A stretch of 46,976 nt of DNA, from positions 1 to 46,976 of the forward strand of contig JAJRXW010000266.1 in NCBI GenBank assembly GCA_024276095.1, given 5' to 3'. Numbering within the stretch: position 1 is the first letter of the stretch; each line of letters opens with the position of its first letter. A program made the position numbers and the translations under genes. Shown here in pieces: positions 7,658 through 46,394 of the stretch. The stretch comes from Gammaproteobacteria bacterium (GTDB lineage: Bacteria; Pseudomonadota; Gammaproteobacteria; Steroidobacterales; GCA-2729495). The notes below the pieces were generated by a model. That model searched no databases. It saw only the letters and a program-made list of their open reading frames with translations, and was not told where the DNA came from.

Positions 7658-7659
7658 TC

Positions 7660-12211: not shown

Positions 12212-12228
12212 AACCTGCTTACACCCCG

Positions 12229-13194
12229 TCAAACCATGGGCCAAATCGTAAATTTGTCCAGCTCCTCTTCCAAGCCGGCGCTGACCATTGCCGGGGTCTG
12301 CAGCTGCCTGGACCGGCGCAGGTCTTCATAACAGGGCACATCGGGATTGCGATAGAGAATGCCCACCGGAATCCGTTCGCTGGTACCGACAAGCTCCCGG
12401 GCCTGGATGAGATCCATCGGATCATGGTCTGCCGTTTGCCGGTACACGCTCGACAGCGCCGTGCTCATTTGCACGCCATCCTCGTGGGTCAATATCAGCA
12501 TCCGGTCCGGATCCTGCACCCAGGGTTCGAAATGATCGGGCAGAAATTCCGGGCAACGCTGCAAAATGCGAATAAACGAAAATCCATGGTGATGGAAAGC
12601 CAGCGAAATGATTTTGTACAGCAGCTCCGGAATCCAGTCAGCGGCCTGGGCCACGAAGGAAAGATTGGACATGCCGAGTGTCGCTATCAAAGGATCGAAT
12701 GCCGCAAGATCCGAGCCCCGTGGCGTGGTGTTGCTGCGCGTCCCCTGCGGCGAAGTCGGCGAAGCCTGTTTCTTGGTCAGACCGTAGATGTTGTTGTCGT
12801 GCATCATCACGGTCATATCCATGTTGTAACGTGCCGCATGAAGCCAGTGTGCAGCACCGATGCTGCAGCAGTCGCCATCGCCGGTATTGACGAAAACGTG
12901 TAGATCGGGCCGGCGCATCTTGATGCCCTCTGCAACAGGCAATGCCCGACCATGCAAACCGTGAAAGCCATAGGTGCCCATGTAATGGGGAAAGCGGCTG
13001 GAGCAGCCGATTCCGGACACGAAAACGACTTTCTCCAGCGGCAACTGCTCGTCGCGCAGCAGCCGCTGTACGGCGGTAAGAATTCCCAGGTCTCCGCACC
13101 CGGTGCACCACCGCGGAGCACAGCCCTCATAGTCTTCCAGGGCCAGCGCTTCTTCGGCAGAGCGCGGTAAAAAATCGACGGCACGTAACGCCAT
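12229..13194 (-). CDS. korB: 2-oxoglutarate (2-oxoacid):ferredoxin oxidoreductase beta subunit
   Basis: N-terminal Cys motif WCTGCGDLGI..., TPP-binding GDGDCCSIG...N..YG motif, typical ~320 aa, immediately downstream of the alpha subunit. Confidence 0.9.
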   Translation of the reverse strand: MALRAVDFLPRSAEEALALEDYEGCAPRWCTGCGDLGILTAVQRLLRDEQLPLEKVVFVSGIGCSSRFPHYMGTYGFHGLHGRALPVAEGIKMRRPDLHVFVNTGDGDCCSIGAAHWLHAARYNMDMTVMMHDNNIYGLTKKQASPTSPQGTRSNTTPRGSDLAAFDPLIATLGMSNLSFVAQAADWIPELLYKIISLAFHHHGFSFIRILQRCPEFLPDHFEPWVQDPDRMLILTHEDGVQMSTALSSVYRQTADHDPMDLIQARELVGTSERIPVGILYRNPDVPCYEDLRRSRQLQTPAMVSAGLEEELDKFTIWPMV

Positions 13195-13205
13195 TTCCGG
13201 TACCT

Positions 13206-15095: not shown

Positions 15096-15104
15096 GGCTT
15101 CTCC

Positions 15105-31699: not shown

Positions 31700-33097
31700 A
31701 TGGCCAAGATACTCGTCGCCGACGATGAATACGGAATCTGCGAAGCCTTCTCGGTGCTGTTGACCGCCGAGGGGCACACACCGCTGCTGGCATCGAACGG
31801 CAAAGAAGCCGTTCGCATGGTTCGCGACGAAAAACCTGCCCTGGTATTCATGGATGCGCGGATGCCGGGTGGTGACGGCCTTGATGCGCTGATGGAAATC
31901 CATGCTCTTTCACCCGGGCTGCCGGTCATCATCATGACCGCATTCGGCACACTCGAGACCGCCCGAAAAGCGATGGACCTTGGCGCATTCGACTACCTGG
32001 GCAAGCCCGTCGATCTGGCCAAGGTTCGCGAACTGCTGGCGCAGGGGTTGCATAAACCTGCGTCAGCATCGGCTACGGTGACCGCACACGATGAGACCGG
32101 TAAACCGGCCCTGCTGGGCCAAAGTGCCGCCATGCAGACCCTGTTCAAGCAGATGGCTCTGCTGACGGACAACGAACTGTCCATCCTGATTACCGGTGAA
32201 AGCGGGGTCGGCAAGGAACTGGTCGCACGGGGCATCCATGAACTCGGTCCGCGTGCCGATGACGCCTTCGTTGCCGTTAACTGCGCTGCGATACCGGAAA
32301 CGCTGATCGAAGCAGAACTTTTCGGGCACGAAGCAGGCGCCTTCACCGATGCAAAATCAAGGCGCATCGGCCGTTTCGAGGCAGCCGGTGTTGGCACGCT
32401 GTTCCTGGACGAAATCTCCGAGTTGCCGTTTCATCTCCAGAGCAAGCTTTTGCGTGTACTGCAGGAACGAACTTTTGAGCGCTTGGGCAGTGTCAAGCCC
32501 ATCGACTTTACCGCCCGGCTGATTGCTGCAAGCAATCGTGATCTCGAAGCAGAGATCGCGGCCGGCCGGTTTCGCGAAGATCTCTATCACCGTCTGAATC
32601 TCGCCACGCTGCTGGTTCCTACACTGCGTGACCGGGAGGACGATATCGAACTGCTGGTAACGCACTTTCTTCGCGTGGCCAACGAGGACATCGGCAAAGA
32701 AGTCACCGGTGTCGAGCCCGCTGTCTTCACCCGGCTCCGGGAACACCCCTGGCCCGGTAACGTCCGCGAACTGGAACACTGCATCAAACGCAGCGTACTG
32801 GCCACACGCGGTACCACGCTGACCGTTCACGACCTTGACCTGCCGCCACCGGTCGACAACGCGGGTAGTGACACGAGCCTGAGGAAACTGCTGGCACAGC
32901 AAGCGGCGAAAATAGTGAGGAATCCCGGAGATTACGGCGGCGAAGGAGGTGTCTACTCCCACCTCATTGATGCAGCCGGTCACGAACTCATTCAGGCGGC
33001 CTTGGAGTTGACCGGAGGCAACCAGGTCGCTGCGGCAAAGCTGCTGGGGATCAACCGGACAACATTGAGAAAGCGATTGAGCGAGCCCGGCGCTTAA
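31700..33097 (+). CDS. Sigma-54-dependent response regulator (REC-AAA+-Fis HTH, NtrC family)
   Basis: REC domain (ILVADDE...MDARMPGGDG), AAA+ Walker A GESGVGKE, GAFTDA loop motif, ELFGHE, LFLDEI, and a C-terminal Fis-type HTH (GNQVAAAKLLGINRTTLRKRL). Confidence 0.9.
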   Translation: MAKILVADDEYGICEAFSVLLTAEGHTPLLASNGKEAVRMVRDEKPALVFMDARMPGGDGLDALMEIHALSPGLPVIIMTAFGTLETARKAMDLGAFDYLGKPVDLAKVRELLAQGLHKPASASATVTAHDETGKPALLGQSAAMQTLFKQMALLTDNELSILITGESGVGKELVARGIHELGPRADDAFVAVNCAAIPETLIEAELFGHEAGAFTDAKSRRIGRFEAAGVGTLFLDEISELPFHLQSKLLRVLQERTFERLGSVKPIDFTARLIAASNRDLEAEIAAGRFREDLYHRLNLATLLVPTLRDREDDIELLVTHFLRVANEDIGKEVTGVEPAVFTRLREHPWPGNVRELEHCIKRSVLATRGTTLTVHDLDLPPPVDNAGSDTSLRKLLAQQAAKIVRNPGDYGGEGGVYSHLIDAAGHELIQAALELTGGNQVAAAKLLGINRTTLRKRLSEPGA

Positions 33098-33179: not shown

Positions 33180-33196
33180 TGTACACAATCTGTACA
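33180..33196. promoter_or_regulatory. Tandem TGTACA palindromes: candidate enhancer (UAS) for the sigma-54 activator
   Basis: TGTACA at 33180-33185 and 33191-33196 (11-bp period), about 90 bp upstream of the sigma-54 promoter. An AT-rich tract (33245-33270) lies between them and could bend DNA or bind IHF. Confidence 0.4.
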
Positions 33197-33277: not shown

Positions 33278-33293
33278 TGGCACGAATCCTGCT
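33278..33293 (+). promoter_or_regulatory. Sigma-54 (-24/-12) promoter
   Basis: TGGCACGAATCCTGCT compared with the consensus TGGCACG-N4-TTGCW: GG and GC are exactly 12 nt apart and only one core mismatch (T to C). It lies just downstream of a sigma-54 activator gene and upstream of a long co-directional operon. Confidence 0.65.
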
Positions 33294-33445
33294 TTATAGA
33301 AGTCGGATACTGTCGACTATGCGCTTCCCATACGATCTGGTGTCCCCACCAAGTTTGCACCGTATCGTAGCGGGCAGGATCTGGCCCCTCCAGGCCCTGC
33401 CGCGACAGAGTCCATGCAGTGGCACCCAGCGCATTTGCACTGGGG

Positions 33446-33469
33446 AAGCGCGTTCGATTGAACGCGCTT
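33446..33469 (+). other. Perfect 10-bp hairpin in the leader of the sigma-54 operon
   Basis: AAGCGCGTTC-gatt-GAACGCGCTT followed by TTG. It lies ~140 nt after the predicted start site and ~125 nt before the first credible start codon. Possible attenuator or processing/stability element. Confidence 0.35.
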
Positions 33470-33594
33470 TTGCCCTGCCTATCCGGACAGAGAATCCCGA
33501 TAACACTGCCGGAGACAAGATCAGGCAAAGGAAAAGCACCATTTGGAAGATAAGCGGGAAACGGCGGATCGGCTCCGGCGGCGCGTACCGGGAA

Positions 33595-34272
33595 ATGCTG
33601 CCGATTACGCTGATCTTCCTGACCCTGCTTATGTCAAAGTTTCTCTTCGTAATCCCCGAAGGGCCTGCCTATCCGGCCTTATCGACACTGGTTCTCGCGG
33701 CGAGTACCTGGTTCGCAGGGATACTGTTTCTACCCCCGGCCGATCACCCTCGACAGGCTGGCCACGGAACTCTGGCGGTTTTGATCTGGTGCCTCAAGCT
33801 GGTGTTCGTATTTCTGGCGCTGGCAGTCCTGGATCCTGCCAGCCGGTCGATACTCCCGCTGCTTCCGCGGGTGGCAGCGACATTGTTTCTCCTGCTGTCG
33901 CTGAGCCTGTTACTTACAACCAGGATTACCGCGCGATTTACCGACAGCCGGCAGGTCGTCGCCGGAATCGCTGCGGCACTCGCCGCCCTGCCTGTCTGGC
34001 TGGGTCCGTTGGTGGAATTTTCCGGCAATGCGCCTTTGCTGACCAATACCCTGGTCGGCGCGAGTCCCATCACCGTCTTTGCCGTTGCGCTGGACCTGGA
34101 CTACCTGCGAACGACCTGGTTCTATGCCCACAGCGCACTCGGTTCGCTCCGCTATGATTATCTATCCTGGTCAGCCTATGCCACGGGTTTCGTTATTGTC
34201 ATTGCCGGACTTGTTCTGGCAGCATTGCGAGCAGACAACAGGCCCGTTTTCATTTCATCAGAAAAAGAGTAA
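33595..34272 (+). CDS. Polytopic inner-membrane protein, unknown family (first gene of the sigma-54 operon)
   Basis: The track ORF opens at 33256, but its first ~113 codons have non-protein-like composition and include the promoter. From M114 (MLPITLIFLTLLMSKFLFV...) the product is ~225 aa with about 6-7 hydrophobic helices. The start is uncertain. Confidence 0.5.
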   Translation: MLPITLIFLTLLMSKFLFVIPEGPAYPALSTLVLAASTWFAGILFLPPADHPRQAGHGTLAVLIWCLKLVFVFLALAVLDPASRSILPLLPRVAATLFLLLSLSLLLTTRITARFTDSRQVVAGIAAALAALPVWLGPLVEFSGNAPLLTNTLVGASPITVFAVALDLDYLRTTWFYAHSALGSLRYDYLSWSAYATGFVIVIAGLVLAALRADNRPVFISSEKE

Positions 34273-34279
34273 GCGCCCC

Positions 34280-35368
34280 ATGAAACATAAAATACTTCCT
34301 TTTGTTCTGTTTTCTCTTTTATTAAGCGCCGTCAGCACCGGTCTCCTGGCAGACAGCAACGGCATGGACCCGGAGATCAGGAGTAAAGCCAAGCGTGCAG
34401 TGGATGCCGGGCTGCATTACCTGCGCACCCATCAGCAGGAAAACGGTTCCCTGTCGAACTCGGTCGGCGTCACCGCACTGGGACTGCGGGCGTTTTTGCA
34501 AAGCCACCGTGGCTACAAGGAAAGTGACGGCGCGTTCATTACCCGGCCGATCCAGTTTCTCCTGGAACATGTCAACGACGATGGCTCTATCAGTGAAACC
34601 AACCAGAATCGAAATTACAACACAGCCGTCTGCATGACTGCGCTGGCCGCGACCAATAATGACCGGTATGCCGAGGTACTGGCCGGTGCGCGTAATTTCC
34701 TCAAGGGTCTGCAGATCGATGAAGGTGACGGCTACGAAAGCGATCACGCATATTATGGCGGCATCGGCTATGGCGGCGATGAACGCCCGGACCTGTCGAA
34801 TGCATACATGGCACTCGAGGGCCTGAGGGCCAGTGCGACCGATCCCGATGACCCGGTGTGGAAAAAGGCATTGATCTTTGTCAGCCGGTCGCAGAATCGC
34901 AGCGAAAGCAACGACCAGGAATGGGCCGCCAACGACGGGGGGTTCACCTATATGCCGGGTTTCAGCCCGAATGGCGGCACAGCATCCTATGGCGGAATGA
35001 CATCGGCGGGCCTGTTGAGCCTGCTTTTTGCCGGCGTGGACAAAGAAGACCCCAGGGTCCAGGCAGCCTACGACTGGATTCGGGCGAATTACACCCTGGA
35101 GTACAACCCGGGTTCCGAGGGAGGAACGCAGGGCCTCTACTACTATTACAACGTGTTCGCCAAGGCGATGTCTGCCTATGGTGCCGATATGGTAGTCGAC
35201 AGCGACGGCACGGCGCACAACTGGCGCAATGAGATCGCAACCAAGCTGATGGACCTGCAGAACGACGACGGTTCCTGGGTCAACCCCGATTCGCCACGCT
35301 GGTGGGAAGGCAACAAAGACCTGGTCACTGCATGGAGCGTGATCGCGCTGAACGCGGCGATCAATTGA
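34280..35368 (+). CDS. Secreted prenyltransferase/squalene-oxidase-repeat (alpha/alpha-toroid) protein
   Basis: I prefer the ATG at 34280, 7 nt after the upstream stop. Signal peptide MKHKILPFVLFSLLLSAVSTGLLA. Repeated QW-type motifs (QQENGSLSNS, VNDDGSISE, QNDDGSWVNPDS) and aromatic-rich helices typical of terpenoid-cyclase/prenyltransferase beta-subunit-like repeats. Confidence 0.7.
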   Translation: MKHKILPFVLFSLLLSAVSTGLLADSNGMDPEIRSKAKRAVDAGLHYLRTHQQENGSLSNSVGVTALGLRAFLQSHRGYKESDGAFITRPIQFLLEHVNDDGSISETNQNRNYNTAVCMTALAATNNDRYAEVLAGARNFLKGLQIDEGDGYESDHAYYGGIGYGGDERPDLSNAYMALEGLRASATDPDDPVWKKALIFVSRSQNRSESNDQEWAANDGGFTYMPGFSPNGGTASYGGMTSAGLLSLLFAGVDKEDPRVQAAYDWIRANYTLEYNPGSEGGTQGLYYYYNVFAKAMSAYGADMVVDSDGTAHNWRNEIATKLMDLQNDDGSWVNPDSPRWWEGNKDLVTAWSVIALNAAIN

Positions 35369-35372
35369 CCAG

Positions 35373-36881
35373 GTGCTGTTCATACCCGGTGTCCTCGCCA
35401 CAGGCATCATGCTTGGTCTGGCGATGTCCGGCCCGGGTCTGGCCAGCGAAAACCTGACCGTAGACGCCCGCACTGCATTCGATACAGGCATCTCGACGAA
35501 ACAGATTTCCGAACTCGGGCTTCATATCCTGAGCGCCCGGGGTGGGGAACTGGAACTGCGCGTCACCGGTGTGCTTCCTGAAGTCACTACGACCCGGTAC
35601 CTGAGACCCGGCGAACCCATGGATATGTGGCTGCCGGTCGGGCAGGCCGCTCCCGGACAAACGCCGGTACTGACCGTGCGGATGGGAGAGGAACGGCCCG
35701 TAACCTATCCGTTGCCGGGCGCTTCGCCCGCCGTTGCCGTGCTGTCAGGCGAGACAGCCATACAACTGCTCGGCGATCTTTTCGGTACGGTTGCCGTTGC
35801 CGGTGAGCGCCTGCCCCGTTATGCACCTGCCTATGCGCAAATCCCGGCCGTGGTACTGGACAGGGAGTCGTTGACCAGGCTCGACGAATTCCAGCTGCGT
35901 GCCTTACTGGACTTTGCAGGCACCTGTGGCCGGCTGATGCTGATCGATGCACCTGACAAGGCGAAACAGGTCTTCGCCAACCGCGCCGCCTGTAGCGGAC
36001 GGTTCCTGAGCACACTGGAAAGCAAGAATATGCAGTCGCCACAGGCCGTGGCAAAAGCATTCAGGACACTTGTCGACAAACCCGGCCGCCAGTTTCTTTC
36101 TCAGGAATCGCTGCGCACACTGCTGCCACAGTCAGTGGCCGGCATCGGCAATCTGTCAGTGCCCGGACTCTTTCTGGCCGGATACCTGCTTGTTTTCACC
36201 ATCCTGGTCGCGCTGGAACAAACACGGCTGGCGAGCCTCGCTTTTTGCGTCATCGGGGTGCTGCTTGCATTGCTGATCTGGCAACCGGGTGCCGGCCGCT
36301 CATTTGTTGCCTGGGCGGAAATGGACGCCGGTGATCGTGTCGCTCGCTACGCCGGCATAGAAGGGTTTTTCTCTACCGGTCGCGGCACCCTCAGCGTTCC
36401 GTCACACAGCTTCGGCAGCTATCCGGTTCAGATCATCGGCGACAATACGGTTTTGCAATGGGGCAGACATGCCGATGAAAGGCAGCTTCGCTGGCGTGCT
36501 GCTCTGCTGAGCCGAATGTACCTGAACAGCCGGGGCAGCTTCCCGGTAGACCCCAACCTCCGGGCACAGGCCAACGACAGGTATGCCAGCGTCTGTAATC
36601 ACGGCGCTGCTGTGACCCAACCCGCGCTGCTGTACTGGCGGGGCTCGGCTTATGCGATCCCCGCGCTCGAGCCGGGCGCGGCATGGTCGACTGACGAGCA
36701 GCCAATCCTGTCGGGCGCGGCCTCCCGGAGGCCCGAGATCCGGCTGCTCAGAACGAGAGCTGCCCCGTCACCTCTGGCCCTGCTGCAGTCCCTGCCGATA
36801 TCCACCGGCGGTGAAAACGATCGGGCCTGGCTGCTCCAGGTTGAGCCGTCACCGGGCGGAGAGAAACCATGCAACGGCTGA
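35373..36881 (+). CDS. Hypothetical 502-aa exported/membrane protein, no recognisable domain
   Basis: GTG start 4 nt after the upstream stop. Signal-like N-terminus (LFIPGVLATGIMLGLAMSGPGLASE) and two central hydrophobic helices (PGLFLAGYLLVFTILVAL, LAFCVIGVLLALLIW). Coding-like composition. The start codon is uncertain. Confidence 0.6.
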   Translation: MLFIPGVLATGIMLGLAMSGPGLASENLTVDARTAFDTGISTKQISELGLHILSARGGELELRVTGVLPEVTTTRYLRPGEPMDMWLPVGQAAPGQTPVLTVRMGEERPVTYPLPGASPAVAVLSGETAIQLLGDLFGTVAVAGERLPRYAPAYAQIPAVVLDRESLTRLDEFQLRALLDFAGTCGRLMLIDAPDKAKQVFANRAACSGRFLSTLESKNMQSPQAVAKAFRTLVDKPGRQFLSQESLRTLLPQSVAGIGNLSVPGLFLAGYLLVFTILVALEQTRLASLAFCVIGVLLALLIWQPGAGRSFVAWAEMDAGDRVARYAGIEGFFSTGRGTLSVPSHSFGSYPVQIIGDNTVLQWGRHADERQLRWRAALLSRMYLNSRGSFPVDPNLRAQANDRYASVCNHGAAVTQPALLYWRGSAYAIPALEPGAAWSTDEQPILSGAASRRPEIRLLRTRAAPSPLALLQSLPISTGGENDRAWLLQVEPSPGGEKPCNG

Positions 36882-37378
36882 GTGCGGTACCCGGTTTTAT
36901 TGCGGTGTTGTGTATTTTTCCCGTATGCAGCTGGTGGCTGCTGCAGGTGCTGGTGGTACTGGAAAGCGGCGGGCCCGGTATCGGTGCCGCCAGCCTGCTG
37001 GCAATAGAAGCGCTGCTGTTACTGCAGCTATTGAGTATCGGGCTGTTTTCGGCCCAGTGGGCGCAACCCTGCGGTGTCGAATCACAGCGTGCGAATGCTG
37101 TTGTCCGCTTTGCGGCACGTCTGTGCACTACGATCATTCCGGCGTGGCCTGCATTGGCTGTTCTGTGGCTCGCCAGCGAGACATCGGCAACTGAACTGGT
37201 TCTGGCAGAAATACTGGCATTAGGCGCAGGCCTCACGGTCGGGCTGATATCGTACGGACTCCGGTTGTCAGGATTCTCGGCTCAAACCATGCAGCAATCC
37301 CGGGTTTTTATCGGCGTCGCCGCAGTGTGCGCGATATGGCTCGGGCATAACGCATATTTCAGCTGGTTGATTACATGA
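36869..37378 (+). CDS. Hypothetical 169-aa polytopic membrane protein
   Basis: The ATG is preceded by GGAGAG and overlaps the upstream gene by 13 nt. Four to five hydrophobic helices. Confidence 0.55.
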   Translation: MQRLSAVPGFIAVLCIFPVCSWWLLQVLVVLESGGPGIGAASLLAIEALLLLQLLSIGLFSAQWAQPCGVESQRANAVVRFAARLCTTIIPAWPALAVLWLASETSATELVLAEILALGAGLTVGLISYGLRLSGFSAQTMQQSRVFIGVAAVCAIWLGHNAYFSWLIT

Positions 37379-38457
37379 CACATTCCGCGCTGAATGCTTT
37401 TCTCGCAGCCGTACGAACGCGGTTATGGGCAGAACAAATCCTCTATGCGGTACGCAAAATGATCTGGCTGACGAGTGTTCTGCTGCTGTTGTTTTCCGGG
37501 GTGCATCTTTTCCGTTCGCCGCCGCATCCATGGCTGATGTTGACCGTAGTGCTGATTGCCGGCCTGGCCGTGCTGATCCCTGCCCTTCTGCGCAGGCCCG
37601 ATGCTGCCGCTGCTGCGCGCCGCGCCGACCGGGTGTTCGCAGGCAGGACGCTGCTGACAACAGCCGAAGAATGCCTGCGAACCCCGGGCTGGCAGCAACG
37701 GGCATCCGGGCAGATCGTGTTGCAGCAGGCAGAAACCGCCGCTCTTGCCTGGCGGCCAATGCTCGGCAATAGCTGGCAACCACCGCGCGCAACAGGGTTC
37801 GCGCTGGCGACGATACCTTTCTTTGTCGCCATGCTGCTGTTTTCTCTGCCTGGCGCCGGCCACAATTCCGGTACCGGCGAAACCGGTACTGGCGAAACCG
37901 GGCTGCATCCTGGATCAGCAGTGGCCAGGCCCGCGACCTCCCCGGGCAACGAACGTGACGATGTCGAACGACTGCGCGAAGCATTGACCGCTGCAGCGGT
38001 GCAGCCGGAACCCGGCGCCGTGAAGACAGCCCCTGCGGATACTGACCTTCGCCCGCAGATGGGCGGGGAGATGCCTGTCGATGCACCGGAACAGGCAGTT
38101 TCTTTTGCGGCCGACCCCGGTGCTGTTCCTGGTTTTGCAGCCGACTCCACCGCTGCCGAAGATCGGGCCGGCAGTGCCAGATCCCGTCCGGCATCGGCAG
38201 ACGGGGATCCGTTTGCACCGGACCACCGTTTTCAATCGGTCACGCGCATGGACATCCGCAGAACCGGCAGGACGATATCGACCCGCACCGATGCCGGCGA
38301 TTATTCGGGTAATACAGACCTCGGCCCAGGGCAACGCGTCAATACCGCCCTGCCCGCTTCCCCACCGCAATCACGACCGCACTGGACCATACTGAGCCCG
38401 GCAGTGGCCGCATATGCCAGAAACTTTCTCGACCGCACGGATAAGCCGAATGAATGA
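37375..38457 (+). CDS. Hypothetical 360-aa membrane protein with a long Pro/Ala/Gly/Asp-rich low-complexity region
   Basis: ATGA start/stop overlap with the upstream gene. Two N-terminal TM helices (MIWLTSVLLLLFSGV, LMLTVVLIAGLAVLIPALL) and a third (FALATIPFFVAMLLFSL), followed by ~190 aa that look disordered. Confidence 0.55.
   Translation: MTHSALNAFLAAVRTRLWAEQILYAVRKMIWLTSVLLLLFSGVHLFRSPPHPWLMLTVVLIAGLAVLIPALLRRPDAAAAARRADRVFAGRTLLTTAEECLRTPGWQQRASGQIVLQQAETAALAWRPMLGNSWQPPRATGFALATIPFFVAMLLFSLPGAGHNSGTGETGTGETGLHPGSAVARPATSPGNERDDVERLREALTAAAVQPEPGAVKTAPADTDLRPQMGGEMPVDAPEQAVSFAADPGAVPGFAADSTAAEDRAGSARSRPASADGDPFAPDHRFQSVTRMDIRRTGRTISTRTDAGDYSGNTDLGPGQRVNTALPASPPQSRPHWTILSPAVAAYARNFLDRTDKPNE
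37870..37899 (+). repeat. 15-bp tandem duplication inside the 360-aa gene (encodes GTGET-GTGET)
   Basis: GGTACCGGCGAAACC / GGTACTGGCGAAACC, one mismatch, in frame. Confidence 0.7.
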
Positions 38458-39448
38458 TCTCAACACCAAACTCGAAAATGCCGCCGGCGACCTGGCGCAA
38501 CTGCAGGCGGTTCTGGGCGACGTCATCGTCGGTCAGGAAAAATTGATCAACGAACTGCTGATCGCGATATTTGCCGGAGGCCATGTTCTGCTGGAAGGCC
38601 TGCCGGGACTCGGCAAGACCCACCTGGCGAAAGCCCTGGCCGCATCGCTGGGCGTGCGGCTGGGGCGGGTCCAGTGTACGCCGGACCTACTGCCTGCAGA
38701 CATTACCGGCAGCGAAATACTGCGGGGCAGCGGTACGCTCGCCGATTCGATGCAGTTTCGGCCCGGGCCGATTTTTGCCAACCTGGTGTTGATTGACGAA
38801 ATCAACCGGGCGACACCGCGCACCCAGTCCGCACTGCTGGAAGCCATGCAGGAACGGCAGGTCACCTACGGTGGTCAGCATCATGCGCTGCCTGAACCGT
38901 TCTGGGTAATTGCAACGCAGAACCCGATCGAACTGGAAGGCACATTCCCGTTGCCGGAGGCACAGCTCGACCGCTTCTTGTTCAAACTGTCTGTCCCCTA
39001 CCCGGGAGCCGAAAGCCTGAATCGCTTGCTGGATGTCTCCCTCGACCGAGAACCTGCCGACCGGCTGTCCGAGCTGCTGGATGTCGAGCGCATCAACGAA
39101 ATCAGGGCGATCAGCCGGGAAGTGCTGCTCGCGGAACCGGTCAGGAAATCCGCTGTCAGCCTGGTATTGAGCACCCAACCCGACAGCGGGCATGCGACCG
39201 GCGTTGCCCGCGAACATATCCGCTACGGCGCCAGCCCCAGGGCACTGCAGGCCATCGTACGCGCGGCACGGGTGCGGGCATTGTTCGAGCGCCGCGCCCA
39301 CGTCTCTCATGAGGACCTGGCCGCAGTCGCGCTTCCGGCGCTTCGTCACCGCATACTGCTGCGCACTTCCAGCGAACTGGACGGGCTGACGGCAGGCTCG
39401 ATACTGCGCGACATACTCACCGGGTGGCAACAGGCTCACGCCGGTTAG
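38450..39448 (+). CDS. MoxR-family AAA+ ATPase
   Basis: I prefer the ATG at 38450 (8-nt overlap with the upstream gene). Walker A GLPGLGKTHLAKALA, Walker B LIDEINRATPRTQSALLEAMQE, VIATQNP.E..GT.PLPEAQLDRF, and the C-terminal lid ...GASPRA. Confidence 0.9.
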   Translation: MNDLNTKLENAAGDLAQLQAVLGDVIVGQEKLINELLIAIFAGGHVLLEGLPGLGKTHLAKALAASLGVRLGRVQCTPDLLPADITGSEILRGSGTLADSMQFRPGPIFANLVLIDEINRATPRTQSALLEAMQERQVTYGGQHHALPEPFWVIATQNPIELEGTFPLPEAQLDRFLFKLSVPYPGAESLNRLLDVSLDREPADRLSELLDVERINEIRAISREVLLAEPVRKSAVSLVLSTQPDSGHATGVAREHIRYGASPRALQAIVRAARVRALFERRAHVSHEDLAAVALPALRHRILLRTSSELDGLTAGSILRDILTGWQQAHAG

Positions 39449-39450
39449 TC

Positions 39451-40338
39451 ATGGACAACGAAACCGTCATTGATGAAGCCAGGCTGCGGCGCTTCGCCAG
39501 GCTCGCCGCACCGCTGTTGCGCGGCCATGTCGCCCAGGGACCTGGGCCACATGCCGCAAGGAATCGTCCGGGTCCGGGCCTCGAGTTTCTGGACCTGCGC
39601 AACTATGCGCCGGGTGACGATATCCGCCATATCGACTGGCATCAGTCGTCACGCCGGCAACAGCCGATGATTCGACGCTATCGTGACGAATCCGCGGCAG
39701 ACTGGTTTCTGTGCCTCGATGGCAGTGCGTCGATGATTTCCGGTGACGGCAAGTGGACCCTCGCTGCACACCTGACCGCGGCACTGGCATACAGCCTGCT
39801 GCATGCAGGACACCGGGTCGCACTCATCATTTTCGCTAATCAGATCGCCGGCTTCTGCCGGCTGGGCCGTGGAGCACACCAGCTGGCAAAGCTGATCAAG
39901 CTGATGCGTGCGCACGACCCGGAAAAATTCGGCGGAACAGACGCCATGAACGGCTCAAACCTGGGCCTCTGCCAGGACGCGCTTTCCCCGATGGCCAACG
40001 CATTTATCGTCAGCGATTTCCTGACCCCCGATGCGATGGAAAAAGATCTCAAAGCCCTGCGTGCGCGCGCCTCTTCTCTCAGCGCAATCCAGGTATTCGC
40101 AGCAGACGAAGCCGCGGTACCCGGGCGCGGACTGGCCACGCTGTACGATATGGAGACCGGTAAAGCGCGTCGGGTCGACCTTTCGTCGCAATCCCGGGCA
40201 CAGGCGTCCGCAACGCTCCAACGGCACAGAAAAAAACTGCAACACATCTGCCGGTCGCTGGCGGTCCGATGGACGAACTGTACTGCAGGCCAGGACTGGG
40301 AACGTATCCTTCTCGATCACCTGCACACAGCCCGCTGA
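39451..40338 (+). CDS. DUF58-family (vWA-fold, MoxR-associated) protein
   Basis: ATG 2 nt after the MoxR stop. Signature ...EFLDLRNYAPGDDIRHIDWHQSSRRQQPMIRRYRDE..., then a degenerate vWA-like block (FLCLDGSASM). Confidence 0.85.
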   Translation: MDNETVIDEARLRRFARLAAPLLRGHVAQGPGPHAARNRPGPGLEFLDLRNYAPGDDIRHIDWHQSSRRQQPMIRRYRDESAADWFLCLDGSASMISGDGKWTLAAHLTAALAYSLLHAGHRVALIIFANQIAGFCRLGRGAHQLAKLIKLMRAHDPEKFGGTDAMNGSNLGLCQDALSPMANAFIVSDFLTPDAMEKDLKALRARASSLSAIQVFAADEAAVPGRGLATLYDMETGKARRVDLSSQSRAQASATLQRHRKKLQHICRSLAVRWTNCTAGQDWERILLDHLHTAR

Positions 40339-40340
40339 AC

Positions 40341-42023
40341 ATGGCGGGCTTTTTCAACCCGCTCTGGTTGCTGGCACTGGCACTGTTGCCGCTGGTACGC
40401 TGGCTGCATCGCTGGCATGCACCGCTGTCTTCCTGGCCGGTAGCGGCGATTTTCATCTGGCGTGAAACCAGTGCCGATGCGGCGGCAGGAGAAACGAAGC
40501 GCAAGCCCGACCCGGCCTGGCGCCGTCGTGCCGTAATCGTTGCCCTGCTTGTCATCGCACTGGCGGGGCCGTACCGGCAAAGTGAGTTGAGCGATCTGAC
40601 GGTCTGGATCGATGACTCGCTCAGCATGTACAGCACCGAGAACGACACCACACGGCTGGCTCTCGGCATGAATGCGCTGGCGCTTGAACTCAGCGAGGAA
40701 ACATCCGGACCGGACCGGGTCAGCTTGCGTTCCCTGACCAACCCGGGTCGATCGCAACTTCTGCATGACCGGCGCCGGATTGCCGTACCGGACTGGCCGC
40801 CCTCTCCATCGGATCGCACATCGGCAGGTGCGGGCACGACGATGGACCTGCCACCGCCGGCTCTTCTGTCCACGGACAGCATTCACTGGCTGGTAACCGA
40901 TAGCGCCAGCGATGCCGTACGACAGTGGGCAACGCGCGCTGCGCTGGCCCGTATCATTCAGGTTGGAAAGAACACGGAGAATGCCGGCGTCTTTCGCCTG
41001 GCCGCCGGGCGCAACCTGCAACAATCCGACCAGGTCGATGTACTGGTCGGAGTCGTGAACCAGGGCCTCAGGACGATCTCACGGGACCTGCAGCTGCACG
41101 ATGGAAACCGGCTGCTTGGGCACAAGCCGCTGTTACTGGAGCCCGGACAGGAGACCTATCTGCGGTTCCAGGTGCCCATCGCTCCGGAAACTGCCGCCCT
41201 CCGGGCCCGAATGAGCCCACCAGACACATTGAGTGCAGATGACGAACTGGGCCTCGACATCCGCCCTCTGCAGCCGCTCCCGACCCGGCTGGGCAAAAAC
41301 TGCGGCGAGGCTCTTTACCGGGCCATCGATACCCACCCGGCACTCATGCTGACCGGAAAGGTCAGGCCTGAACTCACCATCGAATGCATGACAAGCACCG
41401 CGCCGGCCGGCCTCCCGGTGGCCCCCGCAGACCCTGCGCCCGTTGTTTCCACCCTCCCCGCGTGGCTGCCTGTCGCTGGTTCTGCGCAGGATATTTCGCT
41501 GCAAAAACCATGGATCGCCGTGACCGGCGGTTCGCGAATCCTTTTTACAGCAGCACAAACAGAAACCCATGCGCCGGATCAAAAACAGGATACAGCTACT
41601 TTTGACAGCCGTTTACAGCCTGCGCTTGCCGGGGCAGACCAGGTACTGCTCCGGGCAGGTGAGGTACCGCTGGTAGTCAGGCGAATTACCGGCGAGGATC
41701 GCCCGGTTGTCGTCGAGACGAACATCGACATGACTCGCCCCGCGTTCACCCGTCAACCGGAGTTTGCAGCGTTTGTCGCCGCGCTGGTCGACCTTACGGT
41801 CGGGCACCACCTTCTGGAAGAGACCGTGAGTACTGCCCGCAACCCGGAGGCTTCGATTATCGCACCGGCATCGATTCCGCCCGGTGAGAAACACCAGGCC
41901 ATGCCGGTTGCCGGCAAAACAGCCGGCTCGCTGTCGACGCTGTTCCTGATTGCCGCTTTGCTGCTGCTGGCGGCTGATACGATTCTGCTCTGGCGCGCCC
42001 AGCAAGGTGCACATCGTGCCTAG
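40341..42023 (+). CDS. BatA-N (N-terminal double-transmembrane, TIGR02226-like) protein with a degenerate vWA/MIDAS block and a C-terminal TM anchor
   Basis: ATG 2 nt after the DUF58 stop. MAGFFNPLWLLALALLPLVRWLH... matches the aerotolerance-regulator N-terminal pattern. DxSxS in VWIDDSLSM. C-terminal helix LSTLFLIAALLLLAADTILLW. Confidence 0.7.
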   Translation: MAGFFNPLWLLALALLPLVRWLHRWHAPLSSWPVAAIFIWRETSADAAAGETKRKPDPAWRRRAVIVALLVIALAGPYRQSELSDLTVWIDDSLSMYSTENDTTRLALGMNALALELSEETSGPDRVSLRSLTNPGRSQLLHDRRRIAVPDWPPSPSDRTSAGAGTTMDLPPPALLSTDSIHWLVTDSASDAVRQWATRAALARIIQVGKNTENAGVFRLAAGRNLQQSDQVDVLVGVVNQGLRTISRDLQLHDGNRLLGHKPLLLEPGQETYLRFQVPIAPETAALRARMSPPDTLSADDELGLDIRPLQPLPTRLGKNCGEALYRAIDTHPALMLTGKVRPELTIECMTSTAPAGLPVAPADPAPVVSTLPAWLPVAGSAQDISLQKPWIAVTGGSRILFTAAQTETHAPDQKQDTATFDSRLQPALAGADQVLLRAGEVPLVVRRITGEDRPVVVETNIDMTRPAFTRQPEFAAFVAALVDLTVGHHLLEETVSTARNPEASIIAPASIPPGEKHQAMPVAGKTAGSLSTLFLIAALLLLAADTILLWRAQQGAHRA

Positions 42024-44433
42024 ACCGCGCACAGGTCTTGCCGGTCGCACAGGAATGGCCGGAATCGTACTGCTCGCCATGCTGACCGGCGCACCGGAGG
42101 ATCAGAAAAGGCCCATTCACACTACCGTTCTGGCTGACGAGTCTGCAAGCGTCGCCGCCGGACAGATCGAGCCCGTACTTTCCGGGCTGGATACAATCGT
42201 TTCTGAATTGCCCTCATCGTCTGGAATCAGTATCGCGACCTTCGGTACGAGCGCCGCACCATCGATCCTGACCATGAACGCCACGATTGATACGGCAAAC
42301 GACAGCCTGAGCCGGACCTTGCGGCGTGCCATGTGGGACCTCCAGCCGGCATCCCGCAACGCAATCCTTATCGCATCCGACGGATACTGGCAGCCGGAAG
42401 CACACGACGCGCTGGCGGAGGCCAGACAGGCCGGTCTGCCTGTTTTCTGGTTACCGCTGGAGCCGGTGGAACCGGCGCCGGCAATCAGGGATATCGTGGC
42501 CCCGGCCCGGGCACGCCCGGGCCAGCAAATCAGTATCGCAGTCGAAACGCTGCCAGGCGGTGCAGAGGAAACGGAGATCGTTTTATTTGCCGGCCAGCAC
42601 CCGGTCGCGCGCTCCGGGGCGTCGCCCGGTGGAACAACCGTACTGTCGGTCACCGCACCCGGGCAGGGTCCGCTGATACTCGGTGCGGAACTCCGTACCC
42701 GGCCCGGCGGCGCACTGCTCGATCAGTACCGCGCGGCTGCACTGGTCAATATCACGACAGTCCCGAACATCCTGCTGGTCTCGCCCGGTCCTTCCGCTAT
42801 CGGCCAAAGCCTGCGCGCAGGCGGCTGGCCGCTGCGCGCGGTCACACCGCAGCAGTTTTCGACACAGGCCGACAGGCTGCAGTCGTTCGCAAGTGTGATT
42901 CTCGACGATGTGGCGATCAGCGATATTCCGGAGGCGGCGTGGAAGAAGCTCGCAACTGCGGTTCGCAACCAGGCCCTCGGCCTGCTGGTACTGGGCGGCC
43001 CGAATTCCTTCGGCCGCGGAGGATATCGAAACTCGCAACTGGAAACCGTGTTGCCGCTCGTTTCAGAACCGCCCGGAGACGAGGCACTGGCAGATATTCT
43101 CTTTCTCATCGATGTGTCGGGCAGCATGCAGGGCGCAAATGAAAAAGCCGATCGGTTGCGCATTGCAAAGAGCTCGGTACTTGCCGCCAGCGATGTGCTG
43201 CGACCGACAGACCGCGTCGGCCTGATCACGTTCGATGTCGGGGTACGGACAGTTTTACCGCTCAAGGGGCGGGCCGATCACCGGGCGACAATCAATAAAG
43301 TGTGGCCCGGCCGGGCCAGCGGCGGCACCAGCATCATGCCCGCATTCGAACGGGCAACCGCCATCCTGAATCAGGACCTGCAACCGTCGAACCCGAAAGA
43401 TGCCCGGCAGAAAATCCTGATGCTGGTGACGGACGGTTTTTTTACCTCCGGCGATCTGACACGACTCGATACCACACTGGAGGGCTCGGATATCGAACTG
43501 GTCGTGCTACTCATCAATAAGACCGAATCTTCCGACATCAGCGGACTTGCGCGCATCGTTGCCACCCACGGCGGCACAGTCATGCAGGTAAACGAGATCC
43601 TCGACCTGCCCGCGCTGATGAAAAACGAACTGCAATCCCGCCGTCCTGCGTTGATACAGGAGTCCGTCCGCCCGGTCAGTTCCTCCCCCGCCGCGTGGTT
43701 TCCTGAAAACGCCGAATGGCCGGCGATCCATGGCTATCTTTTGACCCGCCCGAAAGCCGACGCCCAGGTCTACCTGGTTTCTCCCCGGGGCGATGCGCTG
43801 ATCGCCGGAATCAGCGCCGGAGCCGGGAAGGTAATCGCGATTACCAACGGTCTGTCCGGCTGGAGCCGCCAATGGCTCAATTGGGAGCAATGGCCCGACC
43901 TGGTTGCCGCTCTGATCAACCATATCAGCGTCCAGGATAGCGGAGGTATCCGCATCTCGACCCGGGCGGAACCGGGCGGCATGGTCGCGATTGCAGTCGA
44001 GACCAGCGCGGAACGCCCGGAAGCCCGGGATCTCAAGGCATCGTTAATCGCACCTGCCGGTACGCTCATCCGCCTCGATCTCAAGCCGGAAGCAGCGCAT
44101 CGATATCGGGCCACGGCACCCGTCGATGGTTTTGGACAATTCACGGTAATCGTTGAAGACGGGCCGGTAACCGCCCGCCAACGATTCCTGCATCAGCCCG
44201 TCAATGAACCGGCGCCCCAGGGTCGGCCGCTGGCGGAACAATGGCTCGGGGACGGACTGGTGCGTCTCTGGGCACCGGATTCACTGCAGACACTCGCACA
44301 GGCAGGCCATTGGCGCGAATGGCTGATCGCTCTGGCACTGCTCGGATTTCTGCTGGTTCTGGTTCTCGAACGCCTGCCCGCAGGCGCCCTGCAGCTGCGC
44401 GCCCGCAGGACAAAGACGCGACAGGCCGTCTAG
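42016..44433 (+). CDS. Large double-vWA-domain membrane protein (BatB-like)
   Basis: Start is ambiguous: GTG at 42016 (AAGG 8 nt upstream, overlapping the upstream stop) or ATG at 42055. First DxSxS in VLADESASV. The second is a canonical MIDAS vWA (ILFLIDVSGSMQG...GGTSI...LVTDG). C-terminal TM helix WLIALALLGFLLVLVL. Confidence 0.8.
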   Translation: MPRPRTGLAGRTGMAGIVLLAMLTGAPEDQKRPIHTTVLADESASVAAGQIEPVLSGLDTIVSELPSSSGISIATFGTSAAPSILTMNATIDTANDSLSRTLRRAMWDLQPASRNAILIASDGYWQPEAHDALAEARQAGLPVFWLPLEPVEPAPAIRDIVAPARARPGQQISIAVETLPGGAEETEIVLFAGQHPVARSGASPGGTTVLSVTAPGQGPLILGAELRTRPGGALLDQYRAAALVNITTVPNILLVSPGPSAIGQSLRAGGWPLRAVTPQQFSTQADRLQSFASVILDDVAISDIPEAAWKKLATAVRNQALGLLVLGGPNSFGRGGYRNSQLETVLPLVSEPPGDEALADILFLIDVSGSMQGANEKADRLRIAKSSVLAASDVLRPTDRVGLITFDVGVRTVLPLKGRADHRATINKVWPGRASGGTSIMPAFERATAILNQDLQPSNPKDARQKILMLVTDGFFTSGDLTRLDTTLEGSDIELVVLLINKTESSDISGLARIVATHGGTVMQVNEILDLPALMKNELQSRRPALIQESVRPVSSSPAAWFPENAEWPAIHGYLLTRPKADAQVYLVSPRGDALIAGISAGAGKVIAITNGLSGWSRQWLNWEQWPDLVAALINHISVQDSGGIRISTRAEPGGMVAIAVETSAERPEARDLKASLIAPAGTLIRLDLKPEAAHRYRATAPVDGFGQFTVIVEDGPVTARQRFLHQPVNEPAPQGRPLAEQWLGDGLVRLWAPDSLQTLAQAGHWREWLIALALLGFLLVLVLERLPAGALQLRARRTKTRQAV

Positions 44434-46394
44434 AACCGGAACCTCAGGCCCAGACGTCCGCGGCGCCCCGCCGACGGAAACCCGATCGCTTCATAGTAGT
44501 TTTTGTCGAGAATATTATCGATTGCCAGCACCAGGTCGAGGCTTGCCATCGGGCTCCAGGTCGCGGTCGCATCGACACGGTGATATGAATCCAGGAACAG
44601 GTCACCGGTCGGAATGGCAGAATCGAATGTTTCATCGACATACAGCCAGGATGCATTCAGCAGCCACTGCTGTACCGGCGCCCAGCGAACGGAAACGCTG
44701 CCGCGCCAATCCGGCATTTGCCGCAGTGGTACGCTGCTGTTTTTTACGCTGACATCCAGGTAGGTAGCCTGCACATACAAATTGAGGTTCTCGTCGATTG
44801 AATAGTCCATCTCCATCTCGACGCCTTTGGTCGTCACCTCGTCGCGATTCAACATCCTGAACTGAACGGAATCGAAATCGATCAGGTCAGTGTACTCGTT
44901 GCGAAACGCGGTAACCGTCGCGCTGAGCCCCTTGTCCATAAACCGGTGGGTAATACCGACATCCACGCTTTTGCTCTTCTCCGGACGAAGATCCGGATTG
45001 CCTACCAGCGGACTCGACAGGGCGAAAAACCCGGGCAACTTGAACCCTTCACCCCAGTTGGCTCGAATCGTGGTTCGCTGGTCATTAAAATCGTACAGCA
45101 AACCCAGCTTGCCGGTCGTTTCGCCGGACTCGTCTGTTGGATTGTCGGTAGGATCGTCCCTGCGAAGGCTGCCCAGCAATGTCAGACCGGTGGCACTCTG
45201 GTAACGCACCTCACCAAAATAACCGACCAGCGTACGATCGAACTTGTACGCATTCGGGATGACGAATCCCGGAAAAAATTCCACGAAGCCGTCGGAAAAC
45301 CCGTCTTCCTTGTAATAATCGGCACCGAAAGTTGCGATGATCGAATCACCGATGTCGACGACTGCGTTGGCGGCCAGGTTGGTTCGCTTCAGATTGGCGT
45401 CGGCGCCATTGGGCGGCACACCATCCCGCACGCCGGGCGCTGCGCCGGGCGAGAAAAAGGTGGTGTCATGATCGTACCAGGTAGCGAGCAGATTCAGGTC
45501 CCAGTTCTCGCTCAAGGCGACTCCCCCGTTCATCCCGACGCTCACATCCCTGGACGTCCGCCGGTCGGTGTCCCTGATCACTGCCAGATCAAAACCACCG
45601 CTGTCCTCCGGAAATGCAGTACCTTCGTTATCCGAGTAACGGCCGAACAGGCGCAGGTCCCATTTTTCCTCTTCGGCGAAAGCGATCTTGCCGGCCACCG
45701 AATCGCTCTTGAACGTCGTCCCGTCGACCGGTTCACCGTCATCCAGCGTGGCTGCCCTGAGGGAGAAATCACCCGAATCGCCAACCGGACCGGAAAACTC
45801 CAGGGCACCGCGATAGAAACTCTCGGTACCGCTCTCCAGCTGTACGGTACCGCCTATCTCGTCCGCCCTGCCCTTGCTGATCACGTTAATGACGCCGGCA
45901 AGTGCATCGGACCCGTAGACGGCAGACTGAGGACCACGAACGATCTCGATGCGTTCGATATCATTCGTGTTCAACGTGGAAAAATCGAATGCGCTGCCGC
46001 GGGTATCGTTGGGATCGTTCACCCTGATGCCGTCAAGCAGGATCATGGTCAGTTCCTGAGCGCCGCCGCGAATGAACAATCGGGCCACACCACCCTGCCC
46101 GGAAGGCTGAACCACATGTACACCGGGCAGATTGCGCAACAGATCGATCACGCCGGCATCACCGCGTGCTTCGATATCTTCCAGCTGGATGACCGTGGTC
46201 GAATTCGGGATATCGCTCATGGTCTCGCTGATGCGCGTACCGGTGACAATAATATTATCGAGCGCCGACCCGTCAGCGGTGCTGTCCTTTGCTGCTGCCG
46301 TGCCGGACACTGTCAATACCAGTACTGCCGCGCAGCCTGCGAGATACCCAAAGCGTCCGCTGTCGATTCCGGTTTTTGATTCTGAGAGTTTCAT
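44430..46394 (-). CDS. TonB-dependent outer-membrane receptor (substrate unknown)
   Basis: Signal peptide, TonB box DNIIVTGTR, plug motifs (FIRGGAQELTMILLDGIRVNDP, IERIEIVRGPQSAVYGSDA), barrel ending ...GRLGLRFRF. Confidence 0.9.
   Translation of the reverse strand: MKLSESKTGIDSGRFGYLAGCAAVLVLTVSGTAAAKDSTADGSALDNIIVTGTRISETMSDIPNSTTVIQLEDIEARGDAGVIDLLRNLPGVHVVQPSGQGGVARLFIRGGAQELTMILLDGIRVNDPNDTRGSAFDFSTLNTNDIERIEIVRGPQSAVYGSDALAGVINVISKGRADEIGGTVQLESGTESFYRGALEFSGPVGDSGDFSLRAATLDDGEPVDGTTFKSDSVAGKIAFAEEEKWDLRLFGRYSDNEGTAFPEDSGGFDLAVIRDTDRRTSRDVSVGMNGGVALSENWDLNLLATWYDHDTTFFSPGAAPGVRDGVPPNGADANLKRTNLAANAVVDIGDSIIATFGADYYKEDGFSDGFVEFFPGFVIPNAYKFDRTLVGYFGEVRYQSATGLTLLGSLRRDDPTDNPTDESGETTGKLGLLYDFNDQRTTIRANWGEGFKLPGFFALSSPLVGNPDLRPEKSKSVDVGITHRFMDKGLSATVTAFRNEYTDLIDFDSVQFRMLNRDEVTTKGVEMEMDYSIDENLNLYVQATYLDVSVKNSSVPLRQMPDWRGSVSVRWAPVQQWLLNASWLYVDETFDSAIPTGDLFLDSYHRVDATATWSPMASLDLVLAIDNILDKNYYEAIGFPSAGRRGRLGLRFRF

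Follow-up and report, generated by a model that had tools for sequence, protein, structure and literature searches.

The stretch of DNA analyzed here, hereafter the window, is a piece of 46,976 nucleotides (nt) from a gammaproteobacterial genome (positions 1-46,976 of JAJRXW010000266.1, assembly GCA_024276095.1), and its subject is a cassette of nine genes, preceded by a two-component regulatory pair and a sigma-54 promoter, that appears to encode an uncharacterized machine of the cell envelope. An open reading frame (ORF) map combined with inspection of start codons places nine co-directional ORFs, denoted A to I, on the + strand at 33595-44433; with the most plausible starts, the successive junctions measure +7, +4, -13, -4 (ATGA), -8, +2, +2 and -8 nt, exactly as a first-pass annotation of this DNA had reported for all nine genes and all eight distances. 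A (33595-34272; 225 amino acids (aa)) is a polytopic membrane protein, B (34280-35368; 362 aa) a secreted toroid, C (35373-36881; 502 aa, or 490 aa from the ATG at 35409) a bitopic membrane protein, D (36869-37378; 169 aa) a membrane protein with 4-5 transmembrane (TM) segments, and E (37375-38457; 360 aa) a membrane protein with a low-complexity tail; A, D and E belong to no Pfam family. F (38450-39448; 332 aa) is a cytoplasmic MoxR-type AAA+ ATPase composed of AAA_3 and AAA_lid_2, and G (39451-40338; 295 aa) is a DUF58 protein, that is, one resembling the von Willebrand factor type A (vWA) domain, with no TM segment. H (40341-42023; 560 aa) combines a BatA_N double-TM anchor, a degenerate vWA domain (DDSLS) and a C-terminal TM segment, and I (42016-44433; 805 aa), anchored by a C-terminal TM segment, contains two vWA domains together with a GATase1_like-type region. 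The cassette consists of two modules, namely, A-D, which is new, and E-I, a Bat-like MoxR/DUF58/vWA set that lacks BatB-E. The order in the title of the first-pass annotation, with MoxR first, is misleading because the MoxR, DUF58, BatA_N and vWA genes are the last four and make up the distal (3') half, and the coordinate 33278 given there is that of the promoter rather than a gene start.

The order histidine kinase, response regulator, promoter, A-B-C-D-E, MoxR, DUF58, BatA_N, vWA is found in more than 20 loci from Gammaproteobacteria and Myxococcota (related loci carry L numbers and their proteins P numbers in what follows), so that genes for the toroid and the 502-, 169- and 360-aa proteins do occur together with MoxR/DUF58 in other genomes, a point raised in the first-pass annotation. 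The hosts include Woeseiaceae and other gammaproteobacterial metagenome-assembled genomes (MAGs), a Methylomonas MAG, a Chromatiales MAG, the endosymbiont of the tubeworm Lamellibrachia, an alphaproteobacterial MAG, a Myxococcota MAG and the cultured Lentisalinibacter salinarum X77. Fourteen of the loci, from named species genomes, were recovered with a four-sequence alignment of A; an alignment of C recovered nothing from the species genomes and one locus from the metagenomes. Judging by gene order, the layout has been retained in its entirety, as one unit, in at least two phyla. The unit can nevertheless be divided. In a Pseudomonadales MAG (L023, 9545-15485), the genes for the kinase, the activator and A-D lead directly to one for a TonB receptor, with no E-I, and L009 has only an A-C fusion (10001-12265) plus D, with no MoxR genes. 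A-D is therefore a separable module, and the arrangement in L023 links this module to a TonB receptor independently of MoxR.

Immediately upstream of the cassette, on the + strand, lie the genes for a sensor histidine kinase (30307-31683), with two TM segments, a predicted periplasmic loop and the HAMP, HisKA and HATPase_c domains, and for an NtrC-type sigma-54 activator (31700-33097), with a receiver, an AAA+ domain and a Fis-type helix-turn-helix. The Pfam matches of the activator (Response_reg, Sigma54_activat (PF00158) at 3.3e-66, and HTH_8) agree, like those of the kinase, with the pair initially proposed at this position. Against the NCBIfam ntrC-like model, the activator scores 434 bits, under the equivalog cut-off, and its GAFTGA-type loop is present and reads GAFTDA. 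Hidden Markov model (HMM) search places orthologues of the kinase upstream of the cassette in 13 loci, and Pfam does so in L025 and L027; in L024, the kinase gene is divergent relative to the cassette. Overall, among close and distant members of the C family and in the 14 species-genome loci, the kinase and the activator usually precede the cassette.

Between the activator gene and gene A, a -24/-12 (sigma-54) promoter, TGGCACGAATCCTGCT, occupies 33278-33293 (+). It is the sole -24/-12 match in the window, with correct GG/GC spacing, and lies upstream of the first gene. Such a match is weak evidence when taken alone, given that 0.14 matches are expected by chance and that at least one occurs in 13 of 100 shuffles. 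What makes the promoter convincing is the equivalent motif, matching 9-11 of the 11 consensus positions, that sits at the same place, in the interval separating the activator gene from the first gene of the operon, in 12 related loci, all of which encode the regulator (L001, L005, L006, L008, L010, L011, L012, L013, L015, L016, L019 and L025). In L020 and L026, where there is no activator gene nearby, a -24/-12 motif was not found. The near-consensus promoter of the first-pass annotation is thus borne out by its conserved position, and the dedicated two-component/sigma-54 control that was proposed along with it gains support from a motif that tracks the presence of the activator across loci. 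Another sigma-54-like site, near 33419 (TGGCACCC...TTTGCA), was rejected by eye owing to its wrong GG-GC spacing. About 98 nt upstream of the promoter, there is an unstranded inverted repeat, TGTACA-N5-TGTACA (33180-33196), which is also present in L006, at -104, and is represented in L010, L013, L005 and L001 by only single TGTACA or TGT..ACA-like elements at about -100. It is plausible, in a purely suggestive sense, that this repeat is the binding site of the activator.

The promoter and gene A are separated by approximately 300 nt, the first 190 of which (33300-33490) align with seven related loci. From this alignment, RNAalifold yields a structured 5' leader RNA on the + strand, with 6 helices and 36 pairs. 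In the alignment, 87% of the cells are paired, compared with 36-46% when the partners are slid by 1-3 columns, a level that none of 500 shuffles reaches; compensatory changes occur in 16 pairs, versus 3-6 after sliding, and a single shuffle among 500 attains this number. A covariance model of the leader detects it in 8 loci (106-154 bits), once per locus and at this position only, and finds no match in the more distant loci L005, L006, L008, L019, L023 and L024, which is why we consider the leader to be clade-specific. Rfam has no hit at the gathering score for the region from the promoter to gene A, the whole window having been scanned, and a search with the leader at E-values up to 5 returned no more than three matches, all below threshold, with E about 2. 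The leader is regarded as a clade-specific cis-regulatory element of the Woeseiaceae-like cassette clade. The hairpin at 33448-33466, which was considered as an attenuator or a small RNA terminator, is taken to be part of the structured leader because its U-tract is not conserved in the orthologues. The public gene call for A (P0290; 317 aa, 33319-34272) starts inside the leader. The orthologues of A are 225-264 aa long, and the extra N-terminus of the 317-aa call is not conserved at the protein level; the annotated start of A is probably wrong, making the protein too long.

The profile searches assign families to B, F, G, H and I and none to A, C, D and E. For the latter four, which the first-pass annotation had called unassignable membrane proteins, no Pfam or NCBIfam family was detected when 61 orthologues of C and 18 of A, D and E were scanned singly, and permissive thresholds applied to these orthologues gave isolated chance-level hits only. 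A has 6-7 TM segments and a conserved C-terminal motif, D.DYLR..WFY.HS.LG.LRY, and each of its relatives is annotated as 'hypothetical'. In other lineages, A is fused to B (P0254, P0257) or to C (P0041, P0163). These two kinds of fusion imply that A, B and C form a physical complex, with the C-terminus of A located in the periplasm, a partnership read here from gene fusions. The gene for D invariably comes after that for C, even in L009 and L023, which lack the MoxR module. E contains an N-terminal TM hairpin, a third TM segment, a long low-complexity region rich in Ala, Pro and Gly, and 25 conserved aa at the C-terminus; the suspicion that it might be of the DUF4175 type was backed by no search result.

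B is the most conserved component of the cassette. Across all loci, its orthologues are 62-82% identical, and in the same comparison identity amounts to 48-72% for MoxR, 33-54% for DUF58 and 20-41% for C, D, E, H and I. The description of B as a signal-peptide-bearing protein with prenyltransferase/squalene-oxidase repeats stands, with a match to SQHop_cyclase_C (PF13243) at 30.9 bits, above the cut-off of 26.1 (1.9e-7), and a signal peptide in all orthologues. The AlphaFold2 (AF2) model (mean predicted local distance difference test (pLDDT) score 78.7) is an (alpha/alpha)6 barrel of the terpene-cyclase/prenyltransferase superfamily. Foldseek matches it with probability 1.0 to 8PAK, 8PAJ and 2SQC, and the relatives comprise monodomain proteins resembling squalene-hopene cyclase (SHC), AprG, thioester (TED) domains and GH76, at TM-scores of about 0.5-0.6. 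A search of the PDB with the single B sequence found nothing; with a profile of B, solved cyclases were matched in the QW repeats only (E about 1e-6).

The resemblance to class II terpene cyclases and prenyltransferase beta-subunits extends to the six QW/GGF-type repeats and the (alpha/alpha)6 barrel, the closest folds being those of the monodomain SHC-like 8PAK/8PAJ and AprG. Unlike class II terpene cyclases, B is exported, consists of a single domain and lacks DxDD. This motif occurs neither in the sequence nor in the alignment of 25 orthologues, the protein is one 340-aa domain instead of the two-domain beta-gamma architecture, and the scores against the NCBIfam cyclase models are 22-28 bits, with cut-offs of 322-851. 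We therefore rejected B as a terpene cyclase, in view of its export, single domain and missing catalytic motif, and consider enzymatic cyclization by this protein in the periplasm unlikely.

By its sequence, C represents a new protein family. A HMMER census, run with a small alignment against 1.84e9 (1.84 billion) representatives, yielded 344 clusters (50% identity) with E-values no higher than 1e-3, of which 177 had values no higher than 1e-30; the length of nearly all was 470-510 aa. A word-indexed search retrieved only four relatives. The AF2 model built from 61 sequences (pLDDT 92.5, predicted TM-score (pTM) 0.89) shows an N-terminal beta-sandwich, an alpha/beta domain that holds two invariant Cys residues, a TM hairpin at 250-290 and C-terminal beta-sandwiches. 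Foldseek found no whole-chain relative of this model, with matches confined to the domain level, to sandwiches of the CARDB/macroglobulin type. Of the two possible starts of C, the GTG at 35373 yields a signal peptide, and the ATG at 35409 is the choice of the gene caller.

In the second module, Pfam agrees with the MoxR AAA+, DUF58, BatA-type N-terminal and vWA domains recognized from the outset: F matches AAA_3 (PF07726) at 4.8e-59, G matches DUF58 (PF01882) at 1e-37, H matches BatA (PF07584) at 28.7 bits against a cut-off of 25.9 (1.8e-6), and I matches VWA_2/VWA at 8e-19. NCBIfam adds nothing specific. H is matched by no Pfam vWA model, hence the qualification of its vWA domain as degenerate, and one orthologue of H gives a weak DUF7407 hit; the GATase1_like similarity of I is weak and appears in orthologues only (E 4e-4 to 0.02). 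Three MIDAS (metal-ion-dependent adhesion site) motifs of the DxSxS form were counted in the first-pass annotation; there are actually four, with DGSAS contributed by the DUF58 protein G. The motif of G is kept in 17 of 17 orthologues and that of H (DDSLS) in most; in I, the MIDAS of the second vWA domain is invariant and the first vWA domain is degenerate in several orthologues. Hydropathy reveals no TM segment in MoxR or in DUF58. The tetratricopeptide repeat (TPR), SH3 and BatD families are represented neither in the nine proteins nor in their orthologues, according to Pfam.

These features define both the kinship of the cassette with the Bat operons and its distance from them. The BatI operon of Bacteroides fragilis and its spirochaete homologues (Borrelia BB0170-BB0176: MoxR, DUF58, BatA-E) share the succession of MoxR (AAA_3) and DUF58, along with a double-TM protein of the BatA_N type and vWA membrane proteins that bear MIDAS motifs. 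Unlike those operons, the cassette has no TPR proteins (the BatB C-terminus, BatC, BatE) and no BatD, its H protein has a degenerate vWA domain, its I protein has two vWA domains and a GATase1_like-type region, and it comes with the five upstream genes A-E, is under sigma-54 two-component control of its own and is linked to a TonB receptor. With no BatB-E-type TPR or BatD domain in evidence, the earlier assertion that the described Bat layout includes neither the additional genes nor the exported toroid nor the dedicated sigma-54 control appears sound. The envelope-integrity operon RL3499-RL3502 of Rhizobium leguminosarum, cited in PMC5700661, reportedly consists of MoxR, DUF58 and two large membrane proteins. 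By domain content, the F-G-H-I core may share this layout, with a BatA_N-anchored protein and a large vWA/GATase1_like membrane protein after MoxR and DUF58. As described, the Rhizobium operon contains no toroid and no genes like A, C, D or E, and it is not known to be sigma-54 controlled. Nowhere in the curated libraries or the literature searched did the nine-gene layout turn up as a characterized system, nor did the A-D half, the sigma-54 control, the receptor or the leader appear in any described layout there; a preprint on Tenderiales concerns classical BatABD.

A TonB-dependent receptor gene (44430-46394, - strand), BtuB/heme-receptor-like and composed of a Pfam Plug and a beta-barrel, converges on gene I. 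The stop codons of the two genes overlap by 4 nt (44430-44433), leaving no space for a terminator between them, and the nearest + strand terminator-like hairpin past gene I is at 44723-44737, within the receptor gene. Receptor orthologues adjoin gene I in L006/L007 (42% identity, co-directional), L014 (57%) and L016 (62%), and the cassettes of L023 and L024 likewise have a TonB receptor as neighbor; counted regardless of orientation, a TonB receptor adjoins the cassette in six lineages. On this record of gene order, the receptor belongs to the conserved neighborhood of the cassette. Its best models are those of the B12 and heme receptor families, and it falls far below both cut-offs, reaching 236 bits against the 599.7 required by the TonB-B12 model TIGR01779. 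Given these scores and the lack of an upstream riboswitch, the cassette-adjacent receptor is not considered to be BtuB. The only cobalamin riboswitch in the window (7657-7888, +; 99 bits) directly precedes a second TonB-dependent receptor gene (7878-9923, +), and the latter is probably the genuine B12 uptake receptor.

Some of the related loci contain additional genes that could hint at the chemistry involved. Inositol-phosphate synthase (Ino1) is the first operon gene in 4 loci (L005, L020, L025, L026). A variant radical SAM enzyme (NF045502), a plant-type (Methyltransf_2) O-methyltransferase or a YdjY-domain gene, any of the three, is present in 11 (L006, L008, L010, L013, L016, L018, L020, L021, L023, L024, L026). 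Nine loci encode a VTT/DedA protein (L008, L010, L012, L013, L016, L022, L023, L024, L026), directly upstream of A in L024 and L022 and directly downstream of I in L026. In L009, one compact string of genes encodes the A-C fusion and D along with a CDP-alcohol phosphatidyltransferase, an aminotransferase, PgpA and a sulfotransferase. These recurring partners, all seen in other genomes, suggest that the chemistry concerns cyclitols or phospholipid head groups.

The predicted topology, with TM segments taken from hydropathy and sidedness from the positive-inside rule, sets A and D in the inner membrane as polytopic proteins, H by its BatA_N double anchor and C-terminal TM segment, and I by its C-terminal TM segment, with the bulk of C, H and I on the periplasmic side. 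In the BatA-type protein BB0173 of Borrelia, the vWA domain is periplasmic and inner-membrane-anchored, according to experimental topology (PMC5700661). The inner-membrane-anchored periplasmic machine envisaged in the first-pass annotation fits the TM segments, the charge distribution, the signal peptides of B and this precedent (PMC5700661); that it serves assembly or maturation, as was also suggested, is conjecture.

Putting these elements together, we propose the following scheme. An extracytoplasmic cue would activate the kinase, and the phosphorylated activator would open the sigma-54 promoter. C would be anchored by its TM hairpin and extend its beta-sandwich/alpha-beta domain and the second beta-sandwich domain into the periplasm, where B, as a soluble toroid, would dock on A and C; H and I, anchored in the inner membrane, would present their MIDAS vWA domains to the same compartment. 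MoxR and its DUF58 partner would remain cytoplasmic, and the MoxR hexamer, acting via DUF58 and those ends of E, H and I that lie in the cytoplasm, would spend ATP to assemble or remodel the periplasm-facing complex, in which the toroid would be the ligand-binding or catalytic core and which would cooperate with the neighboring BtuB-like outer-membrane receptor. ATP-driven, chaperone-like remodeling is the accepted general model for AAA+/vWA pairs such as BchI/BchD, CobS/CobT, NorQ/NorD, CoxD/CoxE and RavA/ViaA, in which, likewise, a MoxR-class ATPase is found beside MIDAS vWA partners; unlike in these pairs, H and I are membrane-anchored and predicted to be periplasmic, and the operon has no obvious client metalloenzyme. 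That the cassette encodes a sigma-54-induced, MoxR-remodeled inner-membrane complex with a toroid core, dedicated to the trans-envelope handling of a small molecule, is the interpretation to which we lean, tentatively and with a little less than even confidence. Far less confidence attaches to the identity of the substrate, which might be a small molecule, polar or amphipathic, with a cyclitol or an inositol lipid as its source, a guess prompted by Ino1, DedA/VTT, YdjY, the O-methyltransferase and the variant radical SAM enzyme of the related loci and by the phospholipid head-group operon of L009.

Several observations weigh against this interpretation. The structural matches of B are generic, at TM-scores of 0.5-0.6, and its most conserved loop (residues 205-240) is modeled with low confidence. 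In the window, the receptor gene is convergent and, hence, outside the transcript. The occurrence of A-D without E-I in L023 and L009 indicates that the two modules need not share a target. Homologues of Ino1, the radical SAM enzyme, the O-methyltransferase, YdjY and VTT are absent from the 47-kb window by tblastn, so that the substrate guess rests on other genomes. Finally, MoxR would have to act from the cytoplasm on vWA domains in the periplasm, a mode of action for which no Bat-type system is known to provide a mechanism.

An alternative, in our estimation rather unlikely, is that the locus is devoted to the TonB-dependent uptake of a metal chelate or a tetrapyrrole/corrinoid-like nutrient, such that the receptor imports it, B binds it in the periplasm, A and D provide passage across the inner membrane, and MoxR/DUF58/vWA act as a chelatase-like motor of the BchI/BchD or CobS/CobT kind that loads or strips the metal. 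The affinity of the receptor to the B12 and heme receptor families and its linkage to the cassette in six lineages would be expected under this scenario, which can also draw on weak NCBIfam hits of MoxR to cobaltochelatase and Mg-chelatase models, on the weak BchU-likeness of the neighboring O-methyltransferase in related loci, and on the fact that inducible two-component control is typical of uptake loci. The scenario is, however, difficult to reconcile with the lack of a CobN/BchH-type large subunit, an ABC transporter or TonB/ExbBD genes, with the shortfall of the receptor against the BtuB cut-off (236 vs 599.7 bits), and with the location of the sole cobalamin riboswitch of the window, at 7657-7888, away from this receptor. 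Furthermore, transcobalamin-type structures do not appear among the top 50 fold matches of B, and the in-operon inositol-phosphate synthase would be left unexplained.

It is similarly doubtful that the cassette is a plain envelope-integrity or oxidative-stress operon of the Bat/RL3499-RL3502 type, in which the five upstream genes are lineage-specific passengers. MoxR, DUF58, BatA_N and vWA do follow one another in the classical order, A-D can exist without E-I, and envelope or aerotolerance phenotypes are published for the Bat and Rhizobium operons (PMC5700661, PMC3557215). Passengers, however, would hardly be expected to behave like A-E, which remain in the same order and coupled to the MoxR genes in hosts ranging from Gammaproteobacteria to Myxococcota, or to include a protein, B, that is more conserved than MoxR; in addition, the BatB/C/E TPR proteins and BatD are absent by Pfam, and sigma-54 two-component control is unreported for classical Bat operons in the literature searched. 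A MoxR-vWA-type biological conflict system, directed against phages or competitors, is highly improbable and already disfavored, for the 48-bit score of MoxR against the bpMoxR model of MoxR-vWA-beta-propeller ternary systems and its weak, P-loop-only hits to PADLOC ATPases are outweighed by the far stronger AAA_3 match (198 bits), the lack of Pfam beta-propeller, effector or nuclease domains and of PADLOC hits for the other eight proteins, the periplasm-facing layout, the stable chromosomal synteny, and partners that consist of a TonB receptor and biosynthetic genes.

The proposal of a MoxR-remodeled trans-envelope complex can be taken one step further, at a considerable cost in likelihood. 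The cassette, the receptor and the accessory genes might together constitute an unrecognized trans-envelope pathway for making, moving or recapturing a cyclitol-derived lipid or exometabolite, with the toroid as the binding or catalytic center and with the riboswitch-like leader of the Woeseiaceae-like clade adding ligand control to that by sigma-54. We hold this to be improbable as a whole; if true, however, it would provide the first concrete substrate and client for a module of the MoxR-DUF58-BatA type.

Few bacterial gene sets without a known molecular function are as widespread as the MoxR-DUF58-BatA/vWA modules, and the cassette, although it overturns nothing, offers an unusually tractable entry to what they do. 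Unlike the classical Bat operons, it is equipped with its own on-switch, consisting of the kinase, the sigma-54 activator and the promoter, and it has the further assets of partners (A, B and C) suggested by fusions and of a linked outer-membrane receptor. The hyper-conserved toroid, predicted to be soluble and periplasmic, is a candidate core that could be purified and screened for ligands, and the biosynthetic neighbors in sister genomes would narrow the chemistry to cyclitol or lipid metabolism. For experimental study, there is the cultured Lentisalinibacter salinarum X77, whose cassette lies at about 155.8-176.3 kb of NZ_JAPDRH010000004, as well as Methylomonas, a cultivable genus, with the cassette located in a MAG. 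The hosts are ecologically abundant, including Woeseiaceae-like sediment bacteria, methanotrophs and tubeworm symbionts, and with the locus come four protein families that Pfam does not contain and a covarying leader RNA without an Rfam entry.

Elsewhere in the window, Rfam identifies the RNA of the signal recognition particle (SRP) at 7413-7509 (-; 64.5 bits). A 763-aa ORF (9953-12244, -), with no Pfam family, adjoins 2-oxoacid:ferredoxin oxidoreductase genes (12229-17690), and a HipA-type toxin kinase with HipA_C and Couple_hipA domains, possibly part of a toxin-antitoxin pair, is encoded at 19919-21241 (-). Upstream of the kinase gene, at 28187-30106 (+), lies the gene for a secreted protein of 639 aa, with no Pfam or NCBIfam family and, by tblastn, no homologue in the related loci. 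At the end of this protein are two similar repeats of about 90 aa and a stretch rich in Pro and Gly, after which a hydrophobic tail and then arginine give it the look of a GlyGly-CTERM/PEP-CTERM type of sorting signal.

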